NCBI GenBank assembly: GCA_013265495.1
Contig: MU058213.1
Coordinates: 2,976,001-3,040,000, forward strand
DNA length: 64,000 nt
Direction of reading: 5' to 3'
Source of the DNA: Vicugna vicugna
Taxonomy: Eukaryota
Below the pieces are notes generated by a model that was not told the origin of the DNA, did no database searches, and saw only the letters and a list, made by a program, of their open reading frames with translations. Below, one piece after another: positions 18,895 to 59,009 of this stretch (within the stretch, counting starts at the first letter, position 1; every line of letters begins with the position of its first letter). Both the position numbers and the translations under genes were made by a program.

Positions 18895-19286
18895 TGATCA
18901 ACAGGGAAAAACTGGTTAAAATTGACAGAAATAATGTGAGAAAATAACCCTCTAATCTTGGGATTTATGATAATAAAGAAATGAAACATTAGGTACATGC
19001 CTCAAGTTTAGGAAACAAATGTTGAAAGCATTCAGAGAAAAACCATGGATGTCCTACAACAAACTCTAAAATGAAGGGGTGGTGAAAGGCTTCCATTTCA
19101 TACTCTAAAGCCAATCGTTGGTATTGGCTGCCTCGGAGCCCAGTAATGAGGCAGACTACGAGGGAGTATGCAGCTCAGTGATTCAAAAAAAAGACCAACT
19201 AGCGATGTCTGCAGTGACTACCATGTGGAAGCCTGGTAGTCCATATACCACATCTCGTCCATCCTGGACTAAAAACAGCCACTGCC

Positions 19287-19751
19287 TTTTTTTTTTAACT
19301 TTTTTTATTGATTTACAATCATTTTACAATGTTGTGTCAAATTCCAGTGTTCAGCACAATTTTTCAGTCATTCATGGACATATACACACTCATTGTCACA
19401 TTTTTTTCTCTGTGAGTTATCTTAACATTTTGTGTATATTTCCCTGTGCTATACAGTGTAATCTTGTTTATCTATTCTACAATTTTTAAATCCCAGTCTA
19501 TCCCTTCCCACCCTCCATCCCCCTGGTAACCACAAGTCTGTATTCTCTGTCTGTGAGTCTATTTCTGTTCTGTATTTACGCTTTGTTTTTGTTTGTTTGT
19601 TTGTTTTTGTTTTTTAGATTCCACATATGAGCGATCTCATATGGTATGGTATTTTTCCTTTCTGGCTTACTTCACTTAGAATGACATTCTCCAGGAGCAT
19701 CCATGTTGCTGCAAATGGCATTATGTTGTCGGTTTTTATGGCTGAGTAGTA
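19287..19751 (-). mobile_element. young lineage-specific L1 3' end, 5'-truncated
   Basis: T-tail; ORF2 C-terminus IMPFAATWMLLENVILSEVSQK; TSD cactgcc(a)tttt. Confidence 0.95.
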
Positions 19752-19891
19752 CACTGCCATTTTTAAATACAAAGCAATACTCGAGAAAGTAAAAATCTTA
19801 CTAATTGGTTGTGAAGTAGAAACAGATAATTCAGTGCATCTGCACTTGCGTTCAGGTTTTGGGCTTGTCCTTCTTCTTGTAACATCTATAA

Positions 19892-27441: not shown

Positions 27442-29555
27442 GGGGTGGGATCAAGATGGTGGAGCAGCAAGATCCCGAGCTCACCTCCTCCCTTGAACAC
27501 TCCAAAACTACAACTACATGTAGAACAACTCTCCCTGAGAACAACCTGAAGAAAAAAAAAAAGTTCTTCTATAACCAAGGATATAAAGAAAAAAACACAT
27601 TGAGGTGGGCTGGAAAGGCAGAGACCCAGCTGAGTCAGGACCCACACCCTTAGCACAGTAACCCATAAGCAGGAGGGCATATCACAAATGCAGACGTCCT
27701 CCCTAAGGAGCAAGGGGTAAAGGCCACACATCAGGCCCTCCAGCCCTGGAGCCTAGCATCACAAAGATGAGCCTCCATGATACCTGGCTTTGACAACCAG
27801 CAGGGCTATGTCCCACAGAGCAGGAGAGCTGCAGGAGACTGAGTCTCCAATTGTAAAGGGCTCATGCACAAACTCACTCACTCTGAGTCCCAGCACAGAG
27901 GTAGCAGTTTGAAAACCTACTGACACTGTAGCCAGCCTGCCTTGGCTGCTGCAACATGCCCCTGGCATGCACCCATTCCAGCTTCAGCCAATCCTCCAAG
28001 ATGATACAGCTCAGCCCAGCATGATCTGAGACACCACCCCCTAGGCCACACTCACTCCAGATTCATCCATCCCATCAAGGTGGACCTGGCCTGGCCCAGC
28101 ACACCTCAGGATACTCCTAGCCTGCACCCACTCCAGCTCCAGCCATCCTGCCAAGGTGGCCCTAGCCAGCATGCCTCAGGACACCCCTGGCTCATGACCA
28201 CTCCAGTCCCTGCCCACCTGCCAAAGCCACCCAGCAATCACAGTGTACATGGGGGACATGGCCATATCCTCAAGAATGGGAAAGATAACTGTTTTGCCTA
28301 ATTCATAGAAACAAGCACAGAAAGTCAAACTGAGGAGAGAGGATTATGTTCTAAATGAAAGAACAAGATAAAAACTCACCCAAAAAAAACCTCATAAAAT
28401 GGAGATAAGTATTTACTTGATAAAGAATTCAAAGAAATGGTCATGTTTACCAAATTTGGGAGAAGATAGGAACACAGTGAGACTTCAACAAAGAGAGGGA
28501 AAATATAATAAAGAACTAATCAGGGCTGGATGAAGAATACAGTAAGTTAAATTGAAAGTACACTAGAAGGAATCAACAGCATATTAGATAACACAGAGAA
28601 CACAAAAGCTACCTGGAAGACAGAATAGTGGAAATCACCTAATCAGAATAGCAAAAAGAAAAAAGAACTAAAGAAAATGAAGATAGTTTAAGGGATCTCT
28701 GGGACAACGTCAAGCAGAATAACACTCTCATTATAGGGGTTCCAGAAGGAGAGAGAGAGAAAAAAAAGGGCCAAAAATTTATTTGAATAAATAACAAGTG
28801 GAAATTTCCCTAACCTGCATAAGGAAACAGATATCTAGGTATAAACATACAGGAATTCCCAAACAACATGAACCCAAAGAGATCCACACAAAGATGAATC
28901 ATAATTAAACTGGCAAATGTTAAAGATAAAGATAGAATTTTAAAGCAGCAAGAGAAAAACAATTATTCATATATAAGGGAACTCCCATAAGGCTATTGCC
29001 TCCTTTTCAGCAGAAATTTTGCAGGCCAGAGAGAGAGTATGATATATTTTAAGTGCTGAAAGGAAGAAAAAAGAAAAAAGAAAAAAGAAAAAAAAAACTT
29101 CAAACCAAGAGTACTCTACCTGGCAAGGTTATCATGCAGAACTGAAGGAGATACTGTTTCCCAGATAGCAAAAACTACAAGCATTCATCCCCACTAAATT
29201 AGCCTTGTAAGAAATGTTAAAGGATCTTATATAAGCAGAAGAGAAAAGCCCATAACAAGAAATAAGAAAATACATGAAAGAAAAAATCTCACTGGTAAAG
29301 GTAAACATATAATAAAGGCAATGGATTAGCCACTTAAAACGCCTGCATGAAGATTAAAAGGCAAAAGTCATAAGATCAACTACATAACTATAATAAGTAG
29401 GGTATACACAAAGGAAAAATATAAAATACGACATTAAAGACAAAGTGTAGCAGGGGGTGCAGAGTGAAAATGTGTTTCTAGAATGTATTAAAATAAAAGC
29501 AATAAAAAAGTTAATAAAATATAAGCAAATATCAGGTTAATATAAAGTAACAGAT

Positions 29556-29603
<48 letters not shown>
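29556..29603. repeat. (GATA)12 perfect microsatellite
   Basis: 12 uninterrupted GATA units inside the L1 inter-ORF spacer. Confidence 0.97.
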
Positions 29604-30493: not shown

Positions 30494-30613
30494 GGGGGGT
30501 TGGTATAGCTCAGCGGTAGAGCACATGCTTGGCACGCACAAGGTCCTGGGTTCAATCCCCAGTACCTCCATTAAAATACAAATAAACCTAATCACCTTCA
30601 AAAAAAAAAAAAA
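30494..30613 (+). mobile_element. tRNA-derived SINE, Vic-1-like (camelid)
   Basis: A box tagctcagcgg, B box ggttcaatccc, AT-rich tail and poly(A); imperfect TSD cagaaaca/cagaaata; inserted in the L1 3'UTR. Confidence 0.88.
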
Positions 30614-43310: not shown

Positions 43311-43653
43311 TTTTTTTATTTTTATTTTTTTTACATTTTTTTTATTGATTCATAATCATTTTACAGTGTTGTGTCAAATTCCAGTGTTCAGCACAATTTT
43401 TCAGTCATTCATGGACATATACACACTCATTGTCACATTTTTTTCTCTGTGAGTTATCATAACATTTTGTGTATATTTCCCTGTGCTATACAGTGTAATC
43501 TTGTTTATCTATTCTACAATTTTGAAATCCCAGTCTATCCCTGCCCACCCTCTTCCCCCCCCCACCCCGGTAACCACAAGTCTGTATTCTCTGTCCATGA
43601 GTCTATTTCTGTCCTGTATTTATGCTTTGTTTTTGTTTGTTTGTTTGTTTTTG
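43311..43653 (-). mobile_element. very young L1 3'UTR insertion
   Basis: Perfect 17-bp TSD tagctgggttgttttta (43294-43310 / 43654-43670); closely similar to the 19287 copy. Confidence 0.96.
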
Positions 43654-44174
43654 TAGCTGGGTTGTTTTTAAACATTCTGCAGCCACAGCTTTGCAGATAA
43701 ATTAGTGGCTTAAGAAAAGTGCGGTTTGGACTGAACACAAATCACTTCACAAGCAATAGAAGAAATAGGTATAAATGGACTCTAAAAATCAAGCAGTAAA
43801 ATTATTTATGCCAAGGGCAACAATTATGTCACTTTCCTCTTTCAAAAAAATTTTTGATTTTTCTTAATAACAGCTTTGTTATATGGCTGAATTACCATTC
43901 ATCATGGTGTGACATGATTTGTTTCAGAAGCAGACAATAAACTGAATTAAATTTAATCAAAGTGACCCAGCAAGCCGGGGACAGGTGAGAGACCATACTT
44001 GCCCATAAGGCCTGGGAGGAGCTGATTTTCTCCAGGCTTACATCATCTTAGACCAAGCTGGGCATGGGCTCAGGGTGTCAGATGCTGTAAGGAGTAGAAT
44101 CTTGTTGAGGAGGACAAGTGGGGAACTCTGGGACAGCAACCCTTTCATACTCCTAGAGAATTTCCTTTTTTTTT

Positions 44175-47522: not shown

Positions 47523-48360
47523 CGTCCCGGCTTGAGTTCTCCCGGAAGCAGGCACCGGGACAAGGACTCAAGGGCAAGTGGTTTATTTAGGAGATTATCT
47601 CAGAAAACACTGGCGAGGTGTGGGAAACCTAGGTGTGGTGGGCCCTGTGACACACTGCCCAGAGCCCTCAGGCAGGGAGGCTGTGATACCGCAGTCTCAG
47701 GCATCATCCCTCTTGGAGACTGTGCTGGCTGAAGACAGCAGCCTCTCCCAAGGTCAGTCCTCTCCCAGGCACAGCCCACACCCAGTGACTAATCCTTGCG
47801 GGGTTATAAACGTCCGACCTACTCACCCCAACTTGGGACAGCTGTGAAGGTCCATTCCATCTTGGGGTTCTCTAAGGTGTCAGCCAAGGCTTCTCTTTGG
47901 ACTGTGCTGTGATCCAACTTCTTCCTCTGCTGTTCAGCTTTCGTCTCCTCCTTCCCACAGGTGTCAGTCTGAAAAGAACTCCCTAATAAACATCCTGCAT
48001 GCTAATCAACCCAACCTGCAACACCAGGGAAGGGAAGGGAGCCAACATAGGGTATGCTGTCAAGCAGTTTACCCCTATGGGTAACTGGCGCTCAATCCCA
48101 ATGCAAAACTCTGAGAAAGAGTGTAGAACATGTGCCTTAGAATTATCCCACGCACAGGGTTAAAGGAGCTGAGGCATTCATTGAAAGAGGACCTAATTCC
48201 TTCCACAGCTGGCCTGCCCCGTGCAGAGCCGGCTGCAGCCGCCAAAGAAAGCCTTCAGGCGGAGACTCGAGGTTGGTGCTTGTGGGTTAGGCTAGAGCGC
48301 ACTGAAATGAGATACCGGTGGGTAATGGGAGGGCTCTCTCAGGACGTGCTTCTAGCCACC
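47523..48360 (-). mobile_element. ERVL LTR33-like LTR, split by an LTR16
   Basis: gaagcaggcaccgggacaaggactcaagggcaagtggtttatttaggag | agggaagggaagggagccaa...tgggtaactggcgctcaatccca. Confidence 0.7.
47634..48023 (+). mobile_element. ERVL LTR16(C-like) solo LTR nested in the LTR33-like element
   Basis: TG...CA termini, ctccctaataaacatcctgcatgctaa...caacctgcaaca; TSD ctagg/ccagg. Confidence 0.8.
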
Positions 48361-48504
48361 TGCTCCAAATTAGGCCTCAACTGAATCATCTTCCCAGATT
48401 AAAGATGTTATGGACCCAGAAGGAAAGGAGATCCAAACATGGAAGAGCACTAGAAATACCCGCCACCATCCAGGAAGGCATCTGGGACTGGAACCCAAAG
48501 AGTG

Positions 48505-48710
48505 GCCATATAGCAAACATTTACTGAGTGAACAGTATCTGCCAGACATTCTGCTGGGCCCTTCTCACTCATGAACTCACAGAATTCACAACAATTCTAT
48601 GAGGGATTTCTATTTAACACATGAGGAACTGAAGTTTAGAGGAGGGAAGCTTCCCAAAGATAGAAGCATAACCCCAAATCTAATGTAGAACTCCATATTC
48701 TTAACCAGAC
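48505..48710 (-). mobile_element. MIR SINE
   Basis: atagcaaacatttactgag...cacaacaattctatgagg...atgaggaactgaag. Confidence 0.8.
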
Positions 48711-49700
48711 TACCCTATTTCACCTCCTCTAGGAGCAAGAAATTGATTTCTCCAGAAGGAACACGTTTAGTGAGTCTTGAAAGCAAAAAGGACACTATCT
48801 ACCGAGCTAAACATCACTCACTTTTGGGAAAAGTGAAGAACTGTGTGCCCTTTTCCCTCTGCAAACAGCTAGCATGGAGCAGACAGGAGAAAATGTAACG
48901 TCATAGTAAGAATTTAATGGTGAAAATGCTTCATGTTTTAAACTGTTGGAGTTTATTTACCCCTAGCATTAGGCATTCCAGTTGCTGAACTGAGATTATG
49001 TTTACAACTTAAAGTGACTGACAGTGTTATTCCAGAAGAGTCATGAGTTGGCCAGAGTTTTCATCCAATGGCAGGTGCAGATTACTCCCGCTCAATAAAT
49101 TTCAGAAGATGGGAGATGACAATAAAGTTGTGTCTCAACGCCATGCATCATGCTAGTTCAACTGACCAGTTACATACCGACTAACCTACAGATTTCACAT
49201 TGAGAGCCTTCCCAACTTCTAATAACTATAGAATTAACTGCTACTAAAATAACTATGTAGGGGACCTGGGTTTCATTTCCAAATCTCACTTTATTTTTGA
49301 CCTTAAAAAGAGATTTGAGCTGCCACTTGTCCAAATTGATGGTGCTCTCAACTACTTACTTCAAGATAGAGAGAATGATGCAAGAAGGGACAGAAAACCA
49401 AATCAATTTATAGATTGAAAACAGCAAACCAAGTCAAAGGACGATTCTCTCTCCCTTGGCCACAGTCTCTAGAATTCAGGATGCATGTGAGGCACTACAA
49501 AGGCTCCAAGAATAATCTCTCCCTTTCTTTCTCCTCAGGCATCAGACTGAGAAAATTCACAAATGTTCTCTTATGGTAAATGGCCCACTGTTAGGGCACT
49601 TTCCCAGGACTGAGGTTTCAGAGTCAAAAAAAAAAGAAAAAAAAGAGGGAAAAATTTTTCCACGTGGGACCACAAAACCAGAGGGAAAATAGGCACTTCA

Positions 49701-51000
49701 GGGTAGAAGGGCCAAGATGGCGGAAGCTTGTAGCTCACCCTCTCCCACAATACATCAAGACTGACATCCACGGCCCACCCAGCCAGAGCACCTGCTGAAC
49801 TTTGACAGAACATCGCCTTCTTCAAAAGACAAAATATACAAATCCGGCAGGAGAAAAGGAAAAAAAAAGAAGTAGCATTAAAATAGTGCAGGACCGGTCC
49901 TGCAGGGAGAGAGCGGCAAAGGAGCATAGCGTTTGTACACTGGGTCTCTCCCTTTCCAGTGGAGAGGTCAGCGGGGCTGAGGAGGAACGTCTGAGGCTCG
50001 GATCTGTACGAAATAGCCCTGCACCAACAGAACTAAGATAAACAAGCACAAACGGTCCCGGCGAACCCCAGCCCTAGACACTAACCGGCAGGGGTGGGAC
50101 GGACAGGCTGCCTAAGCCGGGCGGAGGACTCAGGCCCGGCTGTACGGAGGAAACTGCAGTGTGCTGTGTGCCATGGCTGGGAGGGTATGCAGATCAGAAT
50201 AGCCTGGGTCCCCCATTAAATACAAGAAGAAAAAAAAAAGGCAAAGCAACACTGCTAGTGTGCCCTGGGTGGTGGGGCGGCCCACCAAAGCCTTTGTCTT
50301 CAAAGACCCTCGGCACCATTACTGAAGAGCTCTCAGAAGAAGAGCGGCGGGGCTCAGGCACTGCCACCCTATCCTTAGGTGCCCAGCTCCCAGGCGGAAG
50401 CCGGGTCGAAACCCGAATCCATACCTAGAGGCTGCCCAACCTCATAAGCAGGCTGAGGCTTATTGACAGCTCCAGACAAAGGGAAACGTGCCTCTGCTGC
50501 CTCTGTAAACTCGCGCCTCTAAGACCAACATACAAGGAACGGAGTTCCGGCACACAGCGAGGGCAAGGGCTGGTGACGCCATTTTCTCTAAGCCTGCCTA
50601 CCGAGTACAGGCCCTGCTGCGGCTTGGGGAGCAGCACTGAACTGGGGAGCGACGCGCCCACCTACCGTGCACAAGCAGGGTGCCAGGACGCAGCGCTGTG
50701 AGGTGCCTGCGGCCGCCCGGGTGGCATCAGGAGGGGGTGTGACCTGCAGCCTACGTGCGCGAGCGCAGCGCCTACACGCTGCGTCGGGAGGGGGCGTGAC
50801 CTGCCCACCTACCAGCACTGGAGGCGGCTCAGACCAGGGGCGCGACTTGAGAGCCTCTGGAGCCTGCGAGCAGAGTTAGTGCAGCAGGGCGAGGGCAGGA
50901 GTGGTGACAACCACAGAACAAAATGAGGCCCCAAGGCAGGCTCTGGGCACCACAACACCAGCCACACCGCCAACCAAAGCGATAACAGGCAAAAGGCATG
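49701..51000 (+). promoter_or_regulatory. CpG-rich L1 internal promoter (5'UTR)
   Basis: Visibly GC/CpG-dense compared with flanks; YY1-type caagatggcgg at 49713. Confidence 0.7.
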
Positions 51001-51090
51001 GAAGGAGGACTGGCAGCCACCCATACTTAAGAAGGACCTCTCAACAAAATTATTAAGAGCACACAGTCTTCACCGGAACACATCCACTTT

Positions 51091-53924
51091 TTTTTTAAAC
51101 TTTTTTTATTGAGTAATAGTCATTTTACAATGTTGTGTCAAATTCCAGTGTAGAGCACAATTTTTTCAGTTATATATGAACATACATATATTCATTGTCA
51201 CATTTTTTTTCACTATGAGCTACCACGAGATCTTGTATATATTTCCCTGTGCTATACAGTATAATCTTGTTTACCTACTCTACATTTCAAAATCCCAGTC
51301 TGTCCCTTCCCACCACCCGCCCTCTTGGCAACCACAACTTTGTATTCTATGTCTATGAGTCTGTTCCTGTTTTGTGTTTATGTTTTGTTTTGTTTTAGAT
51401 TCCACATATGAGTGATCTCATATGGTATTTTTCTTTCTCCTTCTGGCTTACTTCACTTAGAATGATATTCTCAAGGAACATCCACGTTGCTGCAAATGGC
51501 GTTATGTTGTCGGGTTTTGTGGCTGAATAGTATTCCATTGTATAAATATATCACATCTTCTTTATCCAGTCATCTGTTGATGGACATTTAGGCTGTTTCT
51601 ATGTTTTGGCTATTGTAAATAGTGCTTCTATGAACATTGAGGTGCAGGTGTCATTTTGAAGTAGGGATCCTTCTGGATATATGCCCAGGAGTGGGATTCC
51701 TGGGTCATACAGTAAGTCTATTCCTAGTCTTATGAGGAATCTCCATACTGTATTCCACAGTGGCTTTCCGTGCTTCCCTCTCCCACTCTTAATGATTTAG
51801 ATGTCTTCTTTTACAATTTTGTGTTTATTCTTTTGTAATTCATTGCAGTTATCAACTTTCCAGTTATGAGTTTCTCATTTTTGTAGAGTCTTGCTTCTTT
51901 TCTGTTTAGAGCAGACCTGTCAATATTTCTTTTAGCATCGGTTTAGTGTTGCTAAGTTTTCACCTGTCTGTGAAGTTCTTTATCTCTCTTTCTACTCTAA
52001 GACATAGCCTTGCTGGATAGAGTATTCTAGGTTGCATCTTTTTTCATGCAGGACTTTGAATATATCTTGCCACTCCCTTCTGGCCTGCAGTGTTTGTATA
52101 GAGATATCAGCTGAGAGCCTTATGGGGGTTCCCTTGTAACTCACTCTTTGTTTTTTTCTTGCTGCCTTTAGGACCATTTCTTTATCCTTGACTCTGGCCA
52201 TCTTGATTATGATATGTCTTGGTGTGGGTCTGTTTGGGTTCTTCCTGTTTGGGACCCTCTGAGCCTCCTGTACTTGGATATCTGATTCCTTCTTTATGTT
52301 TGGAAAGTTTTCAGTCATGATTTCTTCAAATACCTTTTCAATCCCCTTTGCTCTTTCTTCTCCTTCTGGGACCCCTATTATGTGTAGGTTGGCATGCTTT
52401 ATATTATCCCATAGGTCCCATATATTATGTTCATTGTTTTTTATTTGTTTTTCTCTCAGCTGTTCTGATTGGGTGCTTTCTGTTGTCCTGTCTAAGTCAC
52501 TTATTCGTTCCTCTGCATCATCTAGTCCACTTTGCACAGCCTTTAGGTCGGCTTTCATCTCAGCAAATGAGTTTACTAATCCTACTTGGTTCTTCTTTAT
52601 AGCTTCTATTTCATTTTTGACATTTTATATCTCTAAACACTATTTCTTTTCTTTCCTTCAGTACTTTGATCACTCCTTTTTTGAAATCTTGATCTGGTAG
52701 GCCTTCAATGTCTATGTCCTTGATTGTGCTTTCAAGGGATTTCTCTTGATCTTTTAATTGGAAGTGGTTCCTCTGCTTCTTCATATTGCTCATATCTCCC
52801 TGGCACTGTGACCAGTGGGCGAGCAGGTCACTCCCCCTCCTGATGCTGCAGTCAGATGCTCTGCTCTGGCAAGGCAGGTGGCTGGATTGCGCCCCCTCCC
52901 ACCACCATGGTCAGGTGCTGCATTCCTGCCAGAAAGGCAAGTGGCCACCTGCCCTCTCCGAGCGCCAGTCGCTTCACTGCTCTGTGCAGTTGCCTGCTTC
53001 ACCTCAGGTTGGCACTCTGTAGGCGGCCTCGGGGAAGACCGTGGAACAGCCCCGCCCCTGCTCTGTGCCAAATCTCAGTTCCTTGTTTGTCTTGGGGGTG
53101 CAAGTTCTCTGAGGTGCCCAGGCAGAAAGATCCTATCTGCCTCCGGCTATAAACAAGTCTCAGTCCTGCTAGGAGGTTGCGGAGCCCCTGGGTGCGGATT
53201 CAGGTCTCAGCCCCACCCCCACCCAGGCACCCTGTGCACAGGACGAGATGGCAGCTGTGGCTGTGCCACGCCTCTCTTCTGTAAAGAAGCACCAGTAATG
53301 GCGGTGTGGGTCTGAGGAGACAAAGACTATGGCATCCCTCCCCCCAGGGCACACCAGCCTTGTTACTTTGCTTTTTTCACAATTTATGGGGGACCGAGGT
53401 TGTTCTGCTCCATATCCCCTCCCAGCCACAGCACACAGCACCCTGCAGTCCCCCGGGGCTACCTCAGTGCAGCCGCCCCAGTCCTCCGCCAGGTTCAGGC
53501 AGCCTGTCCTGGCCCCAGCTGCTGGCTTGCATCTTGGGCTGGGTGTCACGGGGACCCTTTGTGCCCGTTTAACTTAGTTCTGTTGGTCAAGGGCTGCTGG
53601 GGGCAGATTTGAGATTCAGAGGCCCCCCTCTGTCCCGTCGGCCTCTCCATTGGAGAGGGGAGACCCAGCGAACGAGCGCTAGTCCTCCGTTGCCACTCCC
53701 TCCCCATGGGACTGGTCCTGCACTGTTTTGTTTTTTCTTCTTTCTTTTTTCCTTTTCTCCTACCAGATTTTTGGCGTCTTTCTCTTTCAGAGAAGGCGAT
53801 GTTCTGTGAGAGTTCAGCAGGTGCTCTGGTTGGCTGAGTGGGTCCCTAGATGTGAGTTTGGGTGTATTTGTGGGAGAGGGTGAGCTACGAGCGTCCTTCT
53901 ACTTTGTCATCTTGTTTCTTTCTC
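51091..53924 (-). mobile_element. nested half-L1-like element (5'UTR + ORF1 + 3' end, 2834 bp)
   Basis: TSD cacatccacttt (51079-51090 / 53925-53936); 5' start gagaaagaaacaagatg; inter-ORF spacer fused at ~51765 to the end of ORF2; T-tail at 51091. Confidence 0.93.
51906..52793 (-). pseudogene. L1 ORF1p (RNA-binding chaperone), frameshifted
   Basis: ORFs MSNMKKQRNH... and ...LWDNIKHANLHIIGVPEGEE...PTPRHIIIKM...GTPIRLSAD. Confidence 0.92.
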
Positions 53925-54229
53925 CACATCCACTTTGTTTTTTCTTTTCCTTTTTTAATTTTTAATTGTTTTTTAATTTTTTTATTTTTTAATCCTTTTC
54001 ATTTTTTCTTTGAAATTTTTTAATTAATTTTTTAATTTGTCTCAATTTGATTTTTCTCTCTTTTTGTTTTGTTCTTGTTATTGATTATGCTCTGTTCTCC
54101 AAACTTTTTTCTTCTTTAAAAATGTTTTCTAGTTTTATTTCCACATCTGCTTTAGATAAATAAATAAACAAACCCCTTAAGGGCCACAGTAGATAGCTGA
54201 TACTTCATAATCCATAGTGTGAGAGAGAT

Positions 54230-55194
54230 ATAAGCAAGATGAAGAAGCAGAGGAACCACTCCTAATTAAAAGAACAAGAGAAATGCCCTGAAAGAATGAT
54301 CAATGAAATAGACCTTAGTCTATAGATCATGATTTCAAAAAAAGAGTGATCAAAGTACTGAAGGAACTAAAAGAGACTGTGAGCAGAGATGGAGACTATA
54401 TCAAAAGGGAAACTGAAACTGGAATTTGACACAACATTGTAAAATGATTATAAATCAATAAAAAATGTTTTTAAAAAAGGGAAACAAACTATAAAGAGGA
54501 GCCAATCAAAATTGGAAAACTCATTTGCTGAGATGAGAGCTGATCTAAAGGCTGTACAAAGCAGACTAGATAATGCAGAGGAATGAGTAAGTGACTTAGA
54601 AGACAGGAAAACAGAAGTCACCCAATCAGAACAGCTGAGAGATAAACAAATAAAACCAATGAACATAATATAAGGGACCTATGGGATAATATAAAGCATG
54701 CCAACCTACACATAATAGGGGTCCCAGAAGGAGAAGAAAGAGCAAAGGGGATTGAAAAGGTATTTGAAGAAATCATGACTGAAAACTTTCCAAGCATCAA
54801 GAAGGAATCAGATATCCAAGTACAGAAAGCACAGAGGATGCCAAACAAGAAGAACCAAAACAGACCCACACCAAGACATATTGTAATCAGGATGGCCAGG
54901 GTTAAGGATAAAGAAGTGATTCTAAAGGCAGCTAGAGAAAAATAAAGTTCATTACAAGGGAACTCCCATAGGGCTTTCAGCTGATATCTCTATACAAACA
55001 CTGCAGGCCAGAAGGGAGTGGCAAGATATATTCTAAGTCCTGATGAGAAAAAGATGCAACCTAGGATACTCTATCCAGCAAGGCTATCCTTTAGAATAGA
55101 AGGAGAGATAAAGAACTTCACAGACAAGTAAAAACTAAAAGAATTTAGCAATACTAAACCCATGCCAAAAGAAATATTGAAAGGTCTACTCTAA
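54230..55194 (+). pseudogene. L1 ORF1p of the host element, disrupted
   Basis: Homologous to the nested ORF1 (gacctatgggataatataaagcatgccaacctacacataataggggtccc); carries stops, frameshifts and an insertion. Confidence 0.9.
54421..54474 (+). mobile_element. ~54-bp L1 3'-terminal stub inserted in host ORF1
   Basis: ggaatttgacacaacattgtaaaatgattataaatcaataaaaaatgtt matches the young L1 terminus; TSD aaaagggaaac(tg)aaact. Confidence 0.88.
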
Positions 55195-55585
55195 ATAGAA
55201 AAGAAGCAGGATGATACAGAAAGGAGAAAACCATCATTGGAAAGGCGATAACTACAATGAATTACAACAGAATAAACATGAAATTGTAAAAGAAGACATT
55301 TAAATCATTAAGGGTGGGAGAAGGGAGCAACAAAATATAGAGGTTTTTTTTCTTTTTTTGTTCTCAGTAGGATGGGTTTGAGCTTATATTACTATCAGTT
55401 TAAAACAAACAGATATAGTAATGGGTTAATATACATACAAAACAGGGTAACTACAAGCCAAAAGCTTACTACAGAGTCATAAAAACTAAAAAGAAACCAC
55501 AATAATACAAAGGAAAATTATCAAACCACAAAAAGAAAAAGGAACAAAGAGGAAATACCAAATCAACTTCAAAAATAAGTTCAAA

Positions 55586-56852
55586 ATGATAATAAATACA
55601 CATCTATCAATAATTACTGGAAATGTCAATGGAGTAAATGCTCCAATTAAAAGACACAGAGTGGTAGACTTGACAATAAAACAAGAACCAACAATATGCT
55701 GCATACAAGAGACCCACTTTAGGGAGAAGGACACACATAGACCGAGAGTGAGGATGGAAAAAGATACTCCACACAAATGGAAATGACAAGAAAGCAAGAG
55801 TAGCAATACTGATTTCAGACAAAATAGACTTTAAAACAAAGGCCATAAAGAAAGATAAAGAAGGACATTATATAATGATTAAAGGAGCAATACAAGATGA
55901 GGATATTACACTCACTAGCATATATGCACCCAACATAGGAGCACCTAAATACATAAAGCAAATACTAACAGAGATAAAGGGAGAAACTAATGGGAACACA
56001 ATCATAGTGGGAGACTTTAACACCCCATTAACATCACTGGACAGATCTTCCAGACAGAAAATTAATAAGGCAACAGAAAAACTAAATGATACAATAGAAT
56101 AATTAGACTTCGTTGATTTTTCAGAACATTACATCCCACAAAAAGAGGATATACATTCTTTTCAAGTGCACATGGAACATTTTCTAGTATAGATCATGTA
56201 CTGGGGCACAAAAGGAACCTCAACAACTTTAAGAAGATAGAAATTATTTCAAGCATCTTTTCTGAACACAATGCCATGAAACTAGAAATCAACTAAAGAA
56301 AAACAAAGAAGGAAAAAAACAACAGCATGGAGATTAAACAACATGCTACTAAAAAACCAATGAGTCAATGATGAAATCAAAGAAGAAAGTAAAAAATGCT
56401 TTGAGACAAGCAACAATGAAAACACAACCACACAAGAAAAGAGAACCCTCCTACACTGTTGGTGGGAATGCAGTTTAGTGCAGCCATTGTAGAAAACAGT
56501 ATGGAGATTCCTCAAAAGACTAAAAATAGACTTACCATATGACCCAGCAATCCCACTCCTGGGCATATATCCAGAGGGAACCTTAATTCAAAAAGACACC
56601 TGCACCCCAATGTTCATAGAAGCATTATTTACAATAGCCAAGACATGGAAGCAACCTAAATGTCCATTGACAGATAACTGGATAAAACTGTGGTATATTT
56701 ATACAATGGAATGCTACTCAGCCGTAAAAAAATGATAAAATAATGCCATTTGCAGCAACATGGAAGGCCCTGGAGAATGTCATTCTAAGTGAAGTAAGCC
56801 AGAAAGAGAAAGAAAAATACCATATGATATCACCCATATGTTGAATATTTAA
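55586..56852 (+). pseudogene. L1 ORF2p remnant: endonuclease domain fused to the extreme C-terminus, no RT
   Basis: SIITGNVNGVNAPIKR...ICCIQETH...IYAPN...IIVGDFNTPL...SEHNA; jump at acacaa|gaaaagagaaccc. Confidence 0.9.
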
Positions 56853-59009
56853 AAAAAAAGAGACAAATGAACTTATATATAAAACAGAAACACACAGACA
56901 TAGAATACAGACTTGTGGTTGCTGGGGGGAGGGCAGTGGGAAGGGATAAACTGGGAGTTTGAGATTTGCAGATACTGACTGGTATATATAAAATAAACAA
57001 ACAAGTTTATACTGTATAGCACAGGGAACTATATTCAATATCTTGTAGTAACTTATGGTGAAAAAGAATATGAAAATGAATATGTGTATGTTCATGTATG
57101 ACTGAAGCATTGTGCTGTACACCAGAAATTGACACAACATTGTAAACTGACTATACCTCAATAAAAAAAAAAAAAGGCCTGTTAGATGACAGTGAGTTGG
57201 TAAGAACAGAAAGAAGACACATGAAGAGTCAAAAAAACAGAAGTAAAAGTTTTAAGTGGAAGGAGAGAATAAAAGGTAGAAATAAAGGCAGAGTTTGTTT
57301 ATTTTTTACAGAAATAGACTGTAATTCTAGACTATACCATGAGGCTCTGAGAAGATTCTGAATGTTTCTCATGTCCTTTTGGAACACTAATTAACTAAGA
57401 GATCACAGTTCACAGCTTATCAGCTGCTCTTTATCCATTTAAAATAATCCATGAGGAAATGTTAGTTCAAGGCCGTTAACACTGTCCAAATAAATAACAT
57501 CTCAGAGGCTGATCACCTTGAGAAGGGTGGAATCCTCCCAACTCCACTACAGAAAAATAGCTATTCTTACAACCCCAGTCATTACTTGACAAATCACGGG
57601 GTTGTTCTTTGTTATGAGGGTGGGTAGAACATCACCATTTATCTACATCTGAATCTGGGACACCTGGCTACCCTAACCTTGTAGAGGAGACAGAGCATTA
57701 ATCACAGGCCAGGGAGCTACGGACAGTGAAAGGCACAAAGTTATGAAAATTTATGGCTTTACCAACAAAACCAAGTATGATTTCTATTTACGTACACTGT
57801 TTTATTTTTAGATCATCTTCCAGCCACCTCGCCATCACGGTTTGTATTTAGGAAGAGGCAAGTTTGACATGTCTGATTACTTATAACTAAAACTCATGTT
57901 TAAAGTAGCACTCAAAAGAAGTTACAAAAACCTCAATTGCTCCTAATAGAAAACATCATTTACCAAAGAATTGCTTTATTACTAATACTTTAGGAAGTTG
58001 GTCCTTGGTCCAGATAATTTGTGTCTCTAAATCCTGTGAATATTGGCCTATGCATAAAAGATCTGAAGGGAAAACTAGAGGGAATAGTAATAATAAATTA
58101 TTTTCCAGTTTAAATTGGCAAAATAGAATAAGAAATGTTATGACTATTGAGTGAGAAGGCAAATTGGATATATAGTGTGATTACTCTTTTTAATAAGCTA
58201 TGAAAACTAGAGAGAGAGAGAGAGTGATAATGGTGGCCTGGAAGACCCCTAACATGTATACTTCTGTATGCTTGGGTTCTTTGTTGTTGTTTTCATATAT
58301 ATAAGTATTTATTTTTCTTACTTTTTAAACCAATGAAAAAAAAATTTTTTAATCTCCTAAGCCTTACCAGCATGTGATCTTTAACACTTTTCTCCCAGTG
58401 GTGAAAACAGGACACATACACAGTTTATGAGGCAAATTAGACCATATATTTAAAGCTCCTAACACCACACTTAGTACAGCAGATGCTATAGGATCAAAGT
58501 CTACTAGTTTCATTTTCAAAAACCAAGAATCTAAAATTAAAATTTATGTTAAAATAATATTGTGGATTGTCATTTATTTCATGTATGTATGAAAAGCATT
58601 ACAAATCAAATGAAAATTAGGATCTTCAGGGAAAAAAGTGTTTTAATAAAAGCAATCTTGCATTATATAATGAACCGCATTAATAATAATTGAACATTAA
58701 CAGCACTCTACTCCTTCAACATTTATTGAATTTTTGCCAACAGATCCTTATACAAAATAAAATTTTGGAAAGCCTGCTTTCCCATATCATAATCCAACTC
58801 AAATACAATAAAAACCAATAGTATGAAAAACAAAGCTCCAACCATTATAACTCACATAATAGCAGATGACACAAAGAAAATGATGCTATGGACCCAGAAG
58901 GAAAGGAGTATTGGACCCAGACTGAAACATGAGACATGAACTCCAGCATCCTCTGGTCCTCACACCCGGGTGTCAGTATCTGAACTCAACTCACCATGCT
59001 TCCCTCCAC

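Follow-up and report, generated by a model that had tools for sequence, protein, structure and literature searches.

Among the repeats of the 64,000-nucleotide stretch of vicuña DNA analyzed here (the window), one L1 derivative has kept both of its ends and a full-span ORF1 and has lost nearly all of ORF2. The question raised by this locus is whether the element belongs to an amplified ORF1-only family or results from a one-off internal deletion. A previous reading, made from the sequence alone, had offered these same two alternatives, which we consider to be the right pair. Our analysis points to a single dead L1 copy with a one-off internal deletion as the probable answer, and all of the readings considered belong to known kinds.

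A single insertion nested in an older L1

The element occupies the minus strand from 53924 to 51091 (2,834 bp) and reads, in its own orientation, from a complete 5' end through a full-span, broken ORF1, the inter-ORF spacer, the tail of ORF2 and the 3'UTR to the poly(A) (Table 1). The length, the intact L1 5' terminus, the 3'UTR and the poly(A) previously claimed for it were all confirmed, and the first 850 bp at the 5' side of the element can be aligned to the 5' end of the L1 in which it lies (the host L1). The perfect 12-bp TSD was also there as claimed: the exact 12-mer that flanks the element occurs just twice across the 64-kb window, once on each side, and can be extended to 18 bp if one mismatch is allowed. 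By chance, an exact 12-bp match is found in 1 of ~5,000 random 40-bp window pairs. Because TSD, poly(A) and a T-rich endonuclease-type target, the hallmarks of L1, are all present, and with the complete 5' end and the nesting also counting, we conclude that the element is one TSD-bounded insertion, as had been proposed, made by TPRT into the host L1. The sequence-only reading had overlooked this nesting, as well as the loss of RT in two other L1s of the window.

The 5'UTR had been described as CpG-rich. It is indeed GC-rich, but it is only modestly rich in CpG, with an observed/expected ratio above that of the window (0.20) and below that of the host UTR (0.55). The host 5'UTR (49722-51078), though older, is the richer in CpG of the two.

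Table 1. Features of the element and of the neighboring L1 copies, in positions of the window
Feature	Position	Strand	Remarks
TSD, 5' copy	53925..53936	-	12 bp exact; inside the T-rich host L1 5'UTR, L1-endonuclease-type site
L1 5'UTR including complete 5' terminus	52794..53924	-	GC 58%, CpG observed/expected 0.33
ORF1, full span, dead	51906..52793	-	start codons at the 52793 side, TAA; Pfam Transposase_22 and Tnp_22_dsRBD
Inter-ORF spacer, first ~135-140 bp	51766..51905	-	85% to host spacer
Deletion junction GGAAA/GCC	51764..51766	-	~1 nt microhomology, host as proxy parent
ORF2 C-terminal remnant	51395..51763	-	122 codons, no frameshift, 2 premature stops
3'UTR	51091..51394	-	polypurine tract, AATAAA at 51105-51110, then short poly(A)
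TSD, 3' copy	51079..51090	-	
Host L1, older subfamily	49715..57176	+	element inserted in its 5'UTR, opposite orientation
L1 3' tip, 5'-truncated, 62 bp	54418-54479	+	in host ORF1; 88-90% to young 3' ends (19285, 43325)
Older third L1	27455-31300 (approx.)	+	5' end and ORF1 present
tRNA-Ala-like SINE with A tail	30499-30600	+	in the 3'UTR of the old L1; ARAGORN tRNA call (30499-30570)
Two young 5'-truncated L1 3' ends	19286-19769 and 43325-43654	both -	4.9% apart

ORF1 and the ORF2 remnant

ORF1 was correctly placed by the sequence-only reading, including its few frameshifts: it carries two (~52620 and ~52040). It also has one premature stop, and two short deletions that keep the frame. In the L1 RRM/CTD domains it matched Pfam Transposase_22 (PF02994), with an E value of 5.7e-27, and PF17490, and a protein search returned 4,694 relatives of ORF1p at E<=1e-20. 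Identity reached 82-84% with the ORF1p P0122 and 70-83% with P0121; the three nearest ORF1 proteins lie at 76-84%, and the nearest named ones are those of pig (65%) and of bat and horse (60-63%).

Endonuclease and RT, by comparison, are both absent, as had been noted. Instead of an ORF2 with EN and RT, the element holds the last 122 codons only; it is a deleted derivative and no autonomous L1. This ORF2 tail is 84% identical over 64 aa to P0001 (UniRef A0A8C3H5B0), the nearest among the matches listed. P0001 is filed as painted turtle, a record that is probably mammalian contamination. Three further records, P0090, P0093 and P0176, name Escherichia coli and Delftia as the source of what are mammalian L1 peptides, a case of host contamination in bacterial records.

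A long-lived half-L1 is expected to keep ORF1 while its ORF2 remnant drifts; Bao and Jurka reportedly found in 2010 that the ORF1 of HAL1 stays under selection once ORF2 is lost. The dN/dS check suggested with the earlier reading was run pairwise against the host, and gave 0.46 for ORF1 (residues 59-255, 190 codons) and 0.33 for the ORF2 remnant (116 codons), a direction that speaks against HAL1, in a single comparison of low power (36+18 and 24+17 changes) that carries no correction for transition bias and would miss a short burst from a single master. The mismatch rates of ORF1 and the ORF2 remnant did not differ (Fisher p 0.13), and identity to the closest protein was alike for both (82-84% for ORF1 and 84% for the ORF2 remnant). 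Nothing in this low-power comparison points to a long ORF1-only history or to extra decay of the ORF2 remnant. Mismatches were flat over the three codon positions (21/17/20), and the in-frame dN/dS values weakened a reading of this pattern as purely neutral decay. The element has decayed neutrally, as its frameshifts and stops show, and presumably has no present function.

The join and the neighboring L1s

The fusion of the spacer to the end of ORF2, previously placed at ~51765 (gcacggaaa/gccactgtgg), was borne out by alignment to the host spacer, which continues to 51771, with ORF2 C-terminal sequence beginning at 51765-51764. In the P0001 alignment the join falls four codons past the Cys-knuckle. 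The remainder of the spacer, EN, RT and the Cys-knuckle are therefore lost, ~3.7 kb in all, a size inferred from the 255-bp spacer of the host and from an ORF2 of ~3.8 kb, the pig length given in the available text of PMC6501411. There is no filler at the join, and with the host as proxy parent the overlap is ~1 nt, as end-joining or a jump of RT would leave it, but not as an assembler overlap would.

RT is missing from all three L1s that have a 5' end in the 64 kb, the two others lying within 25 kb of the element. Note that the element was selected for that property and the host and the old L1 were not. The host L1, with ORF1 from ~54237 and ORF2 from 55586, has a deletion of its own at which it keeps the EN part of ORF2, loses RT and jumps to the C-terminus; it was also struck by two later L1 insertions. 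In the old L1, the first 70 bp of ORF2 jump to the C-terminus. The three breakpoint pairs (51765 in the element, ~56430 in the host, ~29830 in the old L1) all differ. The host and the old L1 were taken as single insertions on collinearity alone, and the TSD search around these two gave none that was convincing, the best being 9 bp with one mismatch. Loss of ORF2 looks common locally, arising repeatedly, and since the neighbors show RT loss at other breakpoints, a TSD together with a missing ORF2 is no proof of amplification.

The 3' breakpoints of the three L1s span ~280 bp of ORF2, around the Cys-knuckle, and lie 675 (element), 745 (host) and ~1,340 nt (old L1) from the poly(A). By a rough estimate this clustering is tighter than random deletion predicts, at a few percent; jumps of RT at an early stage of copying could be the cause.

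The window holds younger material as well: the two 5'-truncated 3' ends listed in Table 1 belong to a subfamily younger than the element. The old L1 contains a GATA microsatellite (~29555-29600), and the tRNA-derived SINE in its 3'UTR (30499-30570) is one that we take to resemble a camelid SINE.

A probable one-off internal deletion

The reading that we favor, and hold to be probable, is a single dead L1 copy with a one-off internal deletion. An L1 of a mid-aged subfamily entered an older L1, in its T-rich 5'UTR, by target-primed reverse transcription, and the segment from the spacer to the end of ORF2 would have been removed once, during or after insertion. RT may have jumped forward ~675 nt after starting on the RNA, or the segment may have been lost later, through chromosomal end-joining repair, two routes that are indistinguishable here. 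The copy then decayed neutrally. This reading is supported by the three 5'-complete L1s, all without RT and with different breakpoints, by the ~1 nt microhomology and lack of filler at the join, and by an ORF2 remnant that is in frame over its 122 codons and conserved like ORF1. According to the available text of PMC5872511, internal deletion decays L1 copies, so that 5'UTR counts exceed full-length counts. Two observations weigh against it: the deletion wholly spared ORF1 and the promoter, as in HAL1, and the three 3' breakpoints fall so close together in ORF2.

The possibility of an amplified ORF1-only family

That the element comes from an amplified family of the HAL1 type, with ORF1 only, seems to us unlikely. 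Such a family would descend from an ORF2-less master with promoter, ORF1 and 3' end, which would use its own ORF1p and borrow ORF2p in trans. The anatomy agrees with the definition of HAL1 (5'UTR, full ORF1, 3' end, TSD) in the available portions of PMC5753468 and PMC5786205, ORF1 being present and ORF2 absent, and HAL1s have originated repeatedly in mammals, including the pig (HAL1_Ssc, available text of PMC6501411). However, the junction has no second copy in the 64-kb window, constraint on ORF1 does not exceed that on the ORF2 remnant in the one pair compared, and the neighboring L1s lost RT likewise, with other breakpoints. HAL1 is moreover multi-copy, and one copy was found in the window; the element works like HAL1 only if further copies exist, and we do not class it as HAL1.

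Searches beyond the window covered prokaryote, viral and metagenome collections and returned no related L1 DNA at all. The junction motif had no matches in the JGI metagenomes, and as the scans yielded no L1 DNA of this lineage, the result has no bearing on copy number. The spacer motif had two matches in GTDB, both chance matches in bacterial genes, and none in IMG/VR, and neither result bears on copy number. At the protein level, one of 181 candidate stretches in GTDB gave a weak (41%) match to ORF1, in a Clostridia genome; ORF1 was found in none of nine in IMG/VR and, with an ORF1 alignment as the query, in none of 346 in metagenomes, searches with no power on copy number. A search with the junction peptide returned 711 matches, almost none of them from this lineage and hence without power, and the spacer-derived N-terminus was present in none of the best 120. 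For the interval 48000-54000 (627 words), a fraction of 0.62-0.69 was present in 20 of the 24 runs listed (7 studies). As the element makes up 47% of this interval, part of it is present in those runs, which says nothing on the join.

No camelid HAL1 was found in the literature searched, and one may already be catalogued in Repbase or Dfam. The available main text of a camelid TE survey (PMC8605555) has no mention of HAL1.

Tentatively, and with more doubt than belief, one may still propose that the element represents an L1 family with ORF1 only that is specific to this lineage, has yet to be described and joins its spacer cleanly to ORF2, through a deletion master or recurrent splicing. The host and the old L1 could likewise belong to families of their own. 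Bolder still would be the proposal that these two represent two further RT-less families, in a lineage repeatedly spawning non-autonomous L1s, with 3' breakpoints clustered at the Cys-knuckle that would mark the shortest 3' end that ORF2p mobilises in trans.

Splicing and assembly

An origin by retrotransposition of a spliced L1 RNA is improbable in our view. A cryptic donor in the spacer would have been joined to an acceptor in the last part of ORF2, an unspliced L1 would have supplied the ORF2p that copied the RNA, and an identical join would recur independently, without a master element. The sequence-only reading had argued against splicing from the lack of a GT donor at the junction. That argument is invalid as stated, because a donor GT leaves with the removed part and its absence from the joined product is uninformative; moreover, the 3' side has an AG exactly at the join. 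One possible reading of the join is AAG/CCA, with the exon-end AAG; CAG directly precedes the join on the ORF2 side in the host and the old L1 (P0001 reads LVQ/PLW there), and splicing of human L1 RNA yields internally deleted retrotransposed copies (available text of PMC5860796). Against this, GT is absent at the matching position of the host spacer, a proxy and not the true parent, the nearest being ~8 nt further on; the pyrimidine tract of the acceptor is poor; and the SpIREs in the available text of PMC5860796 use donors in the 5'UTR.

An assembly artefact, by which L1 copies were collapsed or mis-joined, is hardly credible, since although three RT-less L1s in a single window could hint at collapse, the window contains no N, the join has no k-mer-long overlap, one TSD encloses both of its sides, and copies that are 10-20% diverged from each other are easy to assemble. 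A premature-polyadenylation chimera was also considered and rejected: AATAAA lies ~60 nt before the join, which is too far, and there is no A tract at the join.

Meaning and comparison with known systems

If the deletion was a one-off, the element is an ordinary scar, and a caution that a TSD and an absent ORF2 do not make a HAL1. If it belongs to a family, that family would be one more case of HAL1 arising independently, joined with unusual cleanness to a parent of nearly the same age, and would help in asking whether ORF1 has to be retained in cis and what length of 3' sequence mobilisation in trans requires.

In a camelid genome, the parent lineage would probably be that of L1-1_Vpa, L1-2_Vpa and L1-3_Vpa, Repbase camelid L1s that are named, with coordinates, in supplementary table 4 of PMC6726744. 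In the available part of the camelid casein-cluster table of the same paper, which is not a Repbase listing, all six places with HAL1 are tree-shrew and bat entries.

As far as the available portions of the literature go, the element shares an internal deletion, a TSD and a poly(A) with the SpIREs (PMC5860796), and it has AG at the 3' side of its join. The SpIREs described, however, have both splice sites in the 5'UTR or link the 5'UTR to ORF1, whereas here the join runs from the spacer to ORF2. The HAL1 families (human HAL1, pig HAL1_Ssc and bat HAL1-3_ML; available text of PMC5753468, PMC5786205, PMC6501411 and PMC6726744) resemble the element in having ORF1, lacking ORF2, having L1-derived ends and needing ORF2p in trans. 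HAL1 is by definition an amplified family, whereas the element is seen as one copy, with an ORF1 no more constrained than its remnant. With the internally deleted, decayed L1s (PMC5872511 and the available text of PMC13192797) the element has in common the 5'UTR, ORF1, 3' end, poly(A) and TSD, the loss of the interior and neutral decay; no difference from them was shown, the loss here taking all of ORF2 but 122 codons.
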